From assembly GCF_037042905.1 (NCBI RefSeq), contig NC_087245.1:18912001-18972000 (forward strand): a stretch of 60,000 nucleotides of DNA, in the 5' to 3' direction. Below the pieces are notes generated by a model, which had not been told where the DNA came from, did no database searches, and saw only the letters and a program-made list of their open reading frames with translations. Position 1 is the first letter of the stretch. Each line of letters opens with the position of its first letter. Source of the stretch: Lytechinus pictus (Eukaryota). This document shows positions 2,606 to 57,470 of this stretch, piece by piece. Position numbers and translations under genes: made by a program.

Positions 2606-3022
2606 GTAAGTAAAGTCAATGGAGAGGGAGACGAAGGAACGTGGCCTGCCCCTCCCCCTTCCCCCACTTACATGTAGCTTGAAAACCTAGTAGGCTTCAG
2701 TAAGTTTACAAAGGCATGAGGCAAGTTCTAAACTTTGTTTTCTTCTTCATTCAAATCAAATGCACCTCTATGTAAATTTCACCCCCAACCAGCAGATTAA
2801 CACCCTCTAAACCCTCTTTGAAGCATACTTTATGCTCATTTTCAATGACTGATGAGGGAAAAAAATTCAGATTCTTTTTTTTCTATTAAATCACTACTGA
2901 TAGTTCACACCTCAAAGTTTCCTTCAGAAACTCTGAGCAACAGAGGATACATGTAAATTATGGGTATATAGTCACACTGCATTTATACACAACACTGTGT
3001 ATATACAGTGGAGCGTTGGAGT

Positions 3023-3300
3023 GGAGCGTTGTGGCCCAGTGGATTAGTCTTCGGACTTTGAAACAGAGGGTCATGGGTTCGAATCCCAGCCATGGCATGA
3101 TTTCCTTCAGCAAGAAACTGATCCACAGTGTGCTGCACTCAACCCAGGTAAGGTAAATGGGTACCGGTAGGAAGTAATTCCTTAAAAAGCTGTGTGCGCT
3201 ATGAACGCCTAGCTTAGCCGGGTAATATATAGGAGCGCCTTGAGCACCTAACAAGGTGGATATGTGCGCAATATAAATACCCTATATTATTATATTATTA
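3023..3300 (+). mobile_element. Full-length tRNA-derived SINE
   Basis: A-box TGGCCCAGTGG (3032-3042), anticodon-arm-like CGGACTTTGAA, B-box GGTTCGAATCCC (3076-3087), body, (TAT)n tail ending at 3300. Confidence 0.9.
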
Positions 3301-56593: not shown

Positions 56594-57470
56594 GGCCCCC
56601 TCACACCTAATCGAATTGCCTGAAATATGCCTTGCGATGGCTGGCGAAAGGCATTTGAAAAAAAATAGTTTTCAATGGTAACTTATGGTAAATCATATTT
56701 ACCCTTCGTGTTTGGGTTCGTACACCTTCTGAACAGCTGCGATTATTCAAATTCGCGCGAAAATTTTGAACTTGTTTAAAATTTCCCTACGAATTGAAAA
56801 ATTGATGGTTACCTGTTTGTGTGTGTGTGTGTATTTGAGTTCGTCAGACGTGTATCAATCAGATATGATTATTTACGTCTGGGACCAACCTTTAACGTCA
56901 CCATCCAAAAGACGTGACCAGGGCTCGAACCTCTGCATCAATTTGTAACTTCCCCACATAGCTTGGATAACAGGCACACGCCACAACGCCCAGTTTGAAT
57001 TCGCATCTCTTATTTAGTCTGCGGTAATCGTTCGTTTATCATGGTTATCGTTCGTGTGTTATTGTCGCGCACAGTCCCTCATCTCGCTTTTGCCAAAAAG
57101 GACAGATCTCGAAAGAACCCTTAACGAAGCAACACGATGACACAAACGTATAAGAACGCCCGATCTATTCCATCGTCTTCGTTTCTAATCACACGTCATA
57201 TCAAACCATTGCTCACTGTTCGTTCGTCATATTGGGTTATATCAACCCTTCGTTCGCCTTCGGCTGCAATTTACTCTCAGAGGTGAACCGAAAAATTGAT
57301 ATCCTTCGCATGTCATATTTATCCTTTGCTTTCCGTTCGTTGATACAATAGTTACTAATCGCATGATTTGACGGAAATTTTATTTGAATTTGTTGAGTTC
57401 GCTTGCATTTTGTGCATTTTTCCCATTCATCACCCTTCGTCCGCCTACATTCGGTCAGGTGTGAGGGGGC
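56594..57470. mobile_element. Harbinger-like MITE (~700 bp plus nested SINE)
   Basis: TAA|GGCCCCCTCACACCTAATCGAAT ... ATTCGGTCAGGTGTGAGGGGGC|TTA; CpG-rich interior with many TTCG motifs. Confidence 0.85.
56820..56992 (-). mobile_element. SINE with a 7SL(Alu-domain)-like head, B-box, Deu/Nin-like motif and (CA)n tail
   Basis: Minus strand: TGGGCGTTGTGGCGTGTGCCTGTTATCCAAGCTATGTGGGGA..GGTTCGAGCCC..CGTCTTTTGGATGGTGACGTTAAAGGTTGGTCCC..(CA)n; GTTTG direct repeat at 56815-56819 and 56993-56997. Confidence 0.75.

Follow-up and report, generated by a model that had tools for sequence, protein, structure and literature searches.

The 60,000-nucleotide (nt) stretch of Lytechinus pictus DNA analysed here (NC_087245.1; "the window", in whose coordinates positions are given unless a locus is named) contains, on its minus strand, a copy of a composite short interspersed element (SINE) that begins with a piece of the sea urchin's own 7SL RNA. 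Three parts are joined in it: a 7SL-derived head, a ~30-nt piece carrying an RNA polymerase III B box, and a ~90-nt 3′ module with the character of the tail of a long interspersed element (LINE). We put at roughly three in four the probability that the family is a SINE of this make-up, spread by RNA polymerase III transcription and copying by a LINE. The copy in the window occupies 56819..56994, with ~162 nt of unique sequence followed by a 14-nt CA run, and is complete but decayed.

The head comprises nt 1–47 of the element (56948..56994, minus strand). From 56994 downwards the minus strand reads ACTGGGCGTTGTGGCGTGTGCCTGTTATCCAAGCTA, and the full string 56994–56819 opens with ACTGGGCGTTGTGGCGTGTGCCTGTTATCCAAGCTATGTGGGGAAGT. 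The head contains helix 2, helix 3, the UGUAAU turn and helix 4 of the 5′ Alu domain in signal recognition particle (SRP) RNA, together with an A-box region of the 7SL/Alu type (TGGCGTG.GCC). As the reference we used the seven full-length 7SL genes of the same genome (272–283 bits), six of which open with ACCGGGCGTTGTGGCGTGCGCCTGTAATCCAGCTAC/T.TGGAGGT and the seventh, at locus L037, with ACTGGG...GGAAGT. When the first 36 nt are aligned to host 7SL, the window copy is identical in 32 of 37 columns and consensus-like copies are identical in 34 of 37. The latter differ from the six genes by one substitution and one inserted A within 36 nt, and one copy (L038) is identical to the L037 gene at 34 of 34 positions from base 1. 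The local alignment of the head to 7SL scores 60, compared with 15.3 ± 2.3 for shuffled sequences, and 0 of 2,000 shuffles reached that score. A preliminary description of the window, made by comparison with the 5′ end of human 7SL, had already read this strand as beginning with a 7SL-like head; the head proves to be closer to the genome's own 7SL than to the human one.

In Rfam searches with permissive thresholds, Metazoa_SRP was the best of five matches to the window copy (56700–57100; 26.1 bits, expectation value (E) 4.9e-5, against a gathering score of 70); no Rfam family attains its gathering score in the window. The first 47 bases align well at the 5′ end of the model, and the supposed helix-5 part contains several non-standard pairs. 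Two further copies score 29.6 bits (L002, E 3.6e-6) and 32.5 bits (L039, E 3.5e-7), both over model positions 1–44 only. The next relevant match on the window copy is mir-1268, whose printed consensus resembles the 7SL/Alu 5′ end; we take this family to derive from Alu. The isolated head of consensus-like copies folds to the same two hairpins as the 5′ end of 7SL. SINEBase, in excerpts of its description (PMC3531059), asks of a SINE that 60 nt or more of it overlap with 7SL, tRNA or 5S RNA at an identity of 60% or higher; across its first 60 nt the family has 69–78% identical columns with two host 7SL genes, above that threshold, the likeness being concentrated in nt 1–47. A 7SL-derived 5′ part is what distinguishes class SINE1, and the head is of that kind; the tRNA-like head that distinguishes class SINE2 is not seen.

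The head was taken from the host lineage and not from a vertebrate, since it carries the letters that distinguish sea-urchin 7SL from the Rfam metazoan consensus (GUUG...GUGCG for gcgg...gcgcg). Because MAFFT did not place the 3′ strands of helices 2 and 4 in the same columns for 7SL as for the SINE, helix pairs were tabulated by hand. Helix 2 contains the pair U3–A in the SINE (ACU...AGU) and C3–G in six of the 7SL genes. The seventh, L037 (contig C12, minus strand of the locus, ~1501–1799), shares the pair of the SINE, having a paired change in helix 2 (ACT...AGT for ACC...GGT) and an extra T in the helix-4 loop. The U3/A pair may have been inherited from an L037-like source gene, or L037 may have been converted by a SINE. 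Although the pair looks compensatory, it is not independent evidence of selection, because L037 has the same pair. With host 7SL letters from the first base and ~1,500 dispersed copies, the independent origin of a 7SL-derived SINE proposed in the preliminary description is well supported, and on these sequence comparisons we regard the derivation of the head from the host as secure.

Likeness to 7SL ends with the head. The middle segment (nt 48–76; 56919..56947, minus strand) scores 15 against the rest of 7SL, compared with 14.2 ± 2.1 for shuffled sequences, and this score is reached by 726 of 2,000 shuffles; at such a chance-level result, a 7SL origin of the segment and its B box was rejected. 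Likewise, nt 48–172 score 15 against 7SL positions 41–300 (shuffle mean 15.2, reached by 1,128 of 2,000), the S domain is absent, and an older-looking subfamily has no better 7SL likeness outside the head. The element thus holds only the 5′ Alu domain, namely helices 2, 3 and 4 and the UGUAAU turn, and lacks helix 5 and the 3′ half. Of the conserved Alu-domain fold claimed at the outset, the 5′ domain therefore stands and the helix-5/3′ part does not; the accompanying statement that the element has no S domain and lacks the AGTGG of a tRNA A box holds, and neither Rfam nor ARAGORN gave a tRNA hit on the window copy.

The B-box consensus of RNA polymerase III promoters is GGTTCGANNCC, and the middle segment carries a canonical, perfect match to it, GGTTCGAGCCC (56931–56921, minus strand). 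Together with the A-box region of the 7SL head, this motif would supply the parts of an RNA polymerase III promoter, as judged from consensus motifs in the sequence. The 3′ module, which spans nt 77 to ~162 (56833..56918, minus strand) and occurs also without the head, contains a small hairpin (GTCAC/GTGAC) and a longer one (CAGACGT...ACGTCTG, with an inner AATCA/TGATT; 56881–56845, minus strand). In both whole-element folds the latter has an outer stem of 7 bp (CAGACGU/ACGUCUG) that encloses one of 5 bp, and it precedes a short unique end and the CA run. In the window copy the body after the B box measures ~90 nt and is followed by seven CA units ending at 56819, so that the B box, short body and (CA)n tail of the preliminary description are found where it had placed them. 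The (CA)7 tail occupies 56819..56832 (minus strand); it counts 12 nt after the ATAC of the tail anchor used in genome searches and 14 nt with the AC of that anchor included. A stem-loop followed by a simple repeat is the 3′ end of LINEs of the CR1/L2 kind and of their SINEs.

The assembly searched comprises 811.7 Mb in 368 contigs. It contains a 236.7-bit match (E 1.5e-67) to Pfam Bindin, a family of sperm proteins typical of sea urchins that had no match in 14 control genomes, in keeping with an echinoid host. A 177-nt query returned 1,783 first-look candidates, and the 43 matches scored included 39 other full-length copies at 96–97% and one at 91%. The junction of head and middle segment was found at 1,493 places and a 27-mer of the 3′ module at 1,545 places, each at no more than two mismatches, and the reversed-pattern control of each gave 0. 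These counts correspond to about one copy per 525 kb, and dispose of the possibility, allowed for in the preliminary description, that the element is single-copy. With a length of ~175 nt and ~1,500 copies on many contigs, the family lies within the SINEBase bounds of size and dispersal (<1 kb, interspersed, at least 100 copies). Flanks are unrelated for most of the copies listed; L004, L005 and L008 share flanks, as do L015, L021 and L022. The CA runs measure 4–20 nt across 41 copies. Differing flanks, variable CA runs and the occurrence of 5′-truncated copies speak for retroposition.

The family is young. Among 33 copies from the 30 best loci, the mean distance from the majority sequence is 1.24 substitutions per 165 positions, and 4 of the 33 are identical to it; because the sample is biased to the best-matching copies, these values indicate that very young copies exist and do not give the mean age. 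At least three head variants are present, with helix-4 loops of the forms CTACGTGG, CTATGYGG and a 2-nt deletion. The variant CTACRTGG is the most 7SL-like, CTATGYGG is the type of the window copy, and the main type differs from 7SL by C37>T and an inserted A. Every aligned subfamily representative keeps helix 2, helix 3 and the UGUAAU turn without change. In the body, copies occur with or without a 7-nt repeat, GTTCGAG (~20 short-form and 14 long-form pairs, counted by hand from the spacings between junction and 3′-module places listed for contig C1).

The window copy itself is a dead, decayed bystander. Of its five substitutions relative to the majority of 43 aligned copies, three are C>T at CpG; it has also lost 1 nt. 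One C>T at CpG (consensus position 88) turns the majority TTTC into an internal TTTT (56907..56910, minus strand), a possible RNA polymerase III stop private to this copy. Two further private changes lie in the head: C19>T converts a G–C pair of helix 3 to G–U, and A26>T strikes the UGUAAU motif. The isolated head of the window copy no longer reaches the 7SL-like minimum-energy structure, whereas that of consensus-like copies does, which further narrows the claim of a conserved fold. As an inert, mutated repeat lying in gene-poor DNA, the copy has little practical meaning for the window, in which no recognisable coding open reading frame (ORF) was found.

Copies lacking the 5′ end were found in a search with a 26-nt tail anchor, with the SINE's own B-box letters excluded upstream, which returned 203 places. 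The 30 loci read comprise six head-bearing indel variants, six chimeras with a palindromic element, eight variously truncated copies and ten headless copies. All ten headless copies start at nt 80–85 (CGTCTTTCGG...), each in a different flank (near position 1500 of L043, L046, L047, L052, L053, L056, L057, L061, L063 and L064). One shared start point differs from random 5′ truncation, and may reflect a stop of the reverse transcriptase, RNA processing or a separate short element. In L052 the headless copy, flanked by a repeat of 14 nt, lies within an unrelated LINE, in its reverse-transcriptase ORF. LINE fragments are present at L052 (1566–3104, plus strand; reverse transcriptase and RNase H) and at L058 (138–2140, plus strand; AP-endonuclease and reverse transcriptase); we rejected both as partners, as they were merely struck by truncated SINE insertions. 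In the chimeras (L042, L049, L051, L054, L055 and L067), a palindromic element of ~190 nt (CCCTGGGGAGCGTTTCATCAA ... GAAACGCTCCCCAGG) replaces nt 1–76, that is, the head and the B box, and is joined to the 3′ module at GGTCACGTC; at most 24 such junctions exist in the genome. At L044 (reverse strand, ~950–1545), an insert of ~600 bp divides the SINE at its TTAA; the insert is bordered by TTAA on either side and its inverted ends are imperfect, like what piggyBac-type elements leave, and two more places matching the tail anchor (contigs C7 and C20) end the SINE at the same point, with similar sequence beyond.

We propose that the family arose when a reverse transcriptase, copying an older tail-bearing RNA that already comprised the B-box piece and the tail module, switched onto 7SL RNA at about nt 47. 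A template switch is proposed because a reverse transcriptase that jumps between templates late in copying leaves a chimera of this shape, opening with base 1 of a small RNA and stopping partway along it; template switching is one route to chimeric SINEs in passages of Kojima (PMC7245038). The product would have had a 7SL-type start with an A-box region, a B box ~50 nt downstream and a LINE-recognised tail, and the first chimera could thus have been both transcribable and recopiable, because a 7SL start, a good B box and a recognised tail had been joined. RNA polymerase III would start at the 7SL-type 5′ end, directed by the A-box region and the acquired B box, and would stop in flanking DNA. 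The ~90-nt 3′ module with its (CA)n tail is of the type that "stringent" LINEs recognise in their own 3′ ends, and a LINE, probably one of the CR1/L2 kind, would bind its stem-loop and tail with its reverse transcriptase and copy the RNA to new sites. Besides this, SRP9/14 may attach to the 7SL 5′ domain, bringing the RNA to ribosomes that are making LINE protein. Such an Alu-like mechanism is plausible as a hypothesis.

Several results weigh against this account. Exact flanking repeats of at least 7 nt were found in 4 of 41 full-length copies, compared with 2.4% of 1,997 mismatched flank pairs, a weak signal. At the window copy, the GTTTG direct repeats of the preliminary description do not amount to a demonstrated duplication: by eye, ~26 of 33 copies have AA directly before CTGGGCG, as the window copy does, and the 5′ CAAAC is not a convincing target-site duplication because three of its letters recur at the 5′ end of the family and the remaining CA merges with the (CA)n tail. 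A LINE with this tail was not found in the 30 loci read or among 100 listed of the 203 tail-anchor places, where no upstream sequence recurs except in SINE variants. The whole-element folds are no stabler than shuffles (z of −0.41 and 0.11) and do not show helix 3. All published 7SL SINEs retain a 3′ half of the Alu domain, which is absent here, and a profile search of the genome gave no match to SRP9 (PF05486), an absence that tells little, as its exons are small. In SRP RNA, the helix-4 loop pairs with the helix-3 loop, and in the abundant subfamilies the helix-4 loop is altered, with 45 exact copies of CTACRTGG against 303 with the 2-nt deletion; these loop changes are the chief argument against strong selection for SRP9/14 binding.

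It has somewhat less than an even chance, in our estimate, that the head serves only as the start and A-box promoter for RNA polymerase III, perhaps also stabilising the RNA, and that SRP9/14 plays no part in the spread of the family. The altered helix-4 loop of the successful subfamilies (including the C37>T and inserted A of the main type) and the missing 3′ Alu domain favour such a promoter role, as would a partner LINE that recognises the 3′ stem-loop, for which the ribosome trick would not strictly be needed. The extent of the retained piece speaks for more than a promoter, since ~45–47 nt go well past the A-box region, and so does the constancy of helix 2, helix 3 and the UGUAAU turn among the aligned subfamily representatives. 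Specifically, the head ends where the minimal SRP9/14-binding Alu domain ends: according to excerpts of PMC12199147, the 5′ Alu domain, at 46 nt, is enough for SRP9/14 to associate and for Alu to retrotranspose in HeLa cells, at ~86% of the full Alu. Loss of the 3′ Alu half, by analogy with that construct, does not argue against function, and an SRP14 exon is present in the sea-urchin genome (30.6 bits). That the family is a natural repeat of such a "minimal Alu", a ~45-base SRP9/14-binding piece of 7SL amplified to ~1,500 copies by a non-L1, tail-recognising LINE, seems to us doubtful. If true, ribosome docking by means of SRP9/14 would serve non-autonomous elements generally as a route to nascent LINE reverse transcriptase, with no need for poly(A), L1 or the 3′ Alu half.

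It is very improbable that no self-propagating SINE exists and that the copies are chimeric 7SL retrocopies, or a 7SL pseudogene spread by segmental duplication. L1 is known to give template-switch chimeras that carry a small RNA at the 5′ end, and the two groups of copies with shared flanks would suit duplication; but in ~1,500 copies 7SL nt 47 meets the middle segment at one and the same junction, as would not be so for independent chimeras, most of the flanks listed are unrelated, and the subfamilies have diagnostic changes. A tRNA-derived SINE2 whose 5′ end resembles 7SL by chance or convergence is hardly credible: the B box is of the tRNA type, and the decamer GCGTTGTGGC is common to the element and the tRNA-type SINE at window position 3023, but no tRNA model appears among the 5, 6 and 7 Rfam matches at E up to 10 for the window copy and two more copies, ARAGORN found 0 tRNA genes in the window and in 40 loci, and the unbroken match of 34 bases, counted from base 1, to a host 7SL gene and the score unreached by 2,000 shuffles leave host 7SL as the better fit. 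The decamer, mentioned at first as a caveat in favour of tRNA, is indeed shared, and is also part of host 7SL. A search for a tRNA-headed progenitor gave none among 100 listed of 892 places, all of which were variants with the same head; because mismatches could fall on the exclusion letters, this search is uninformative as an exclusion.

The tRNA-type SINE lies at 3021–3300 (plus strand) of the window, with a classic A box GTGGCCCAGTGG, a B box GGTTCGAATCC and a body ending in GCGCAATATAAATA followed by ATT repeats; it is a candidate Deu-domain SINE. Elsewhere in the genome, three 7SL genes stand in tandem on contig C10, and each has, ~35 nt upstream on its own strand, a diverged copy of the 7SL-headed SINE. 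With the 7SL gene starting at 1501 in each locus, these copies occupy 1294–1465 of L035, 1315–1465 of L036, and both 877–1048 and 1290–1461 of L031, where the SINE and ~90 nt of flank are duplicated. Given about one copy per 525 kb, a SINE beside 7SL genes is unlikely by chance, and these copies could mark a favoured insertion or source site or, if the family is a natural "minimal Alu", its birthplace. They do not reflect a general targeting of RNA polymerase III genes, because no tRNA genes lie near 33 other copies; in all, 0 tRNA genes were found within 1.5 kb of copies in 40 loci.

The 7SL SINEs include the most successful human mobile element, and their independent origins are extremely rare, being confined in excerpts of PMC7245038 and PMC13023118 to the supraprimates, one hagfish and one shrew mole. 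In passages of the latter report (PMC13023118), 7SL SINEs are described as unreported outside supraprimates and hagfish before the shrew-mole case. Our literature search found no 7SL-derived SINE in an echinoderm or any invertebrate, and strings specific to the element turned up in the papers listed only as chance occurrences of an 11-mer; Repbase, Dfam and SINEBase were not compared, so that the family may already be catalogued, possibly as tRNA-derived. An echinoderm origin would be the first outside vertebrates. It would also make testable, in a distant animal with a different LINE, whether SRP9/14 binding helps SINEs generally or only those that work with L1.

The closest known counterpart is SINE1-1_EBu (Ebu1-1) of the hagfish Eptatretus burgeri, which, in passages of PMC7245038, likewise has a head from host 7SL, independent of Alu, is chimeric and young, reaches a few thousand copies, and ends in a non-L1, sequence-recognising tail with a short simple repeat. 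SINE1-1_EBu differs in keeping both 7SL ends, with the centre deleted, and in its bipartite tail, which is RTE-derived and whose partner is identified (Kojima 2020, PMC7245038, in part), whereas the sea-urchin SINE has 7SL nt 1 to ~47 only, a B box from another source and a (CA)n end. Alu, FLAM and B1 of Euarchontoglires and the shrew-mole Urop, as excerpts of Kosushkin et al. 2026 (PMC13023118) present them, share with it a leading 7SL 5′ domain, an A-box region in the 7SL part, high copy number and the character of an RNA polymerase III-type retroposon. They differ in consisting of 7SL sequence only, in poly(A) and L1, and in a central deletion: in the same excerpts (PMC13023118), published 7SL SINEs descend from 7SL with ~183 nt deleted centrally and keep both ends, a feature that the sea-urchin SINE lacks, having no 3′ 7SL, a body foreign to 7SL that holds a stem-loop and ends in (CA)n, and an invertebrate host.

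Almost exactly the same 7SL piece, nt 1 to ~45–47, is kept in the sea-urchin SINE and in SA46 of Moldovan, Yin and Moran 2025 (PMC12199147, excerpts). SA46 is, however, a human laboratory construct with a cytomegalovirus (CMV) promoter, mobilised by L1 ORF2p via poly(A) in that account (PMC12199147), while the sea-urchin head is known by its sequence. SURF1/SINE2-4c_SP, SINE2-3_SP (a DeuSINE) and SINE2-8_SP, as listed in part of Ohshima 2013 (PMC3747384), come from the same host group and have CR1/L2-type partners; they are given there as tRNA-derived (PMC3747384), and it is this listing, not a comparison of sequences, that sets them apart. Judged by its parts, the sea-urchin SINE is SINE1-like, with the 5′ domain only, a non-L1 tail and an invertebrate host, a combination that sets it apart from the published 7SL SINEs.

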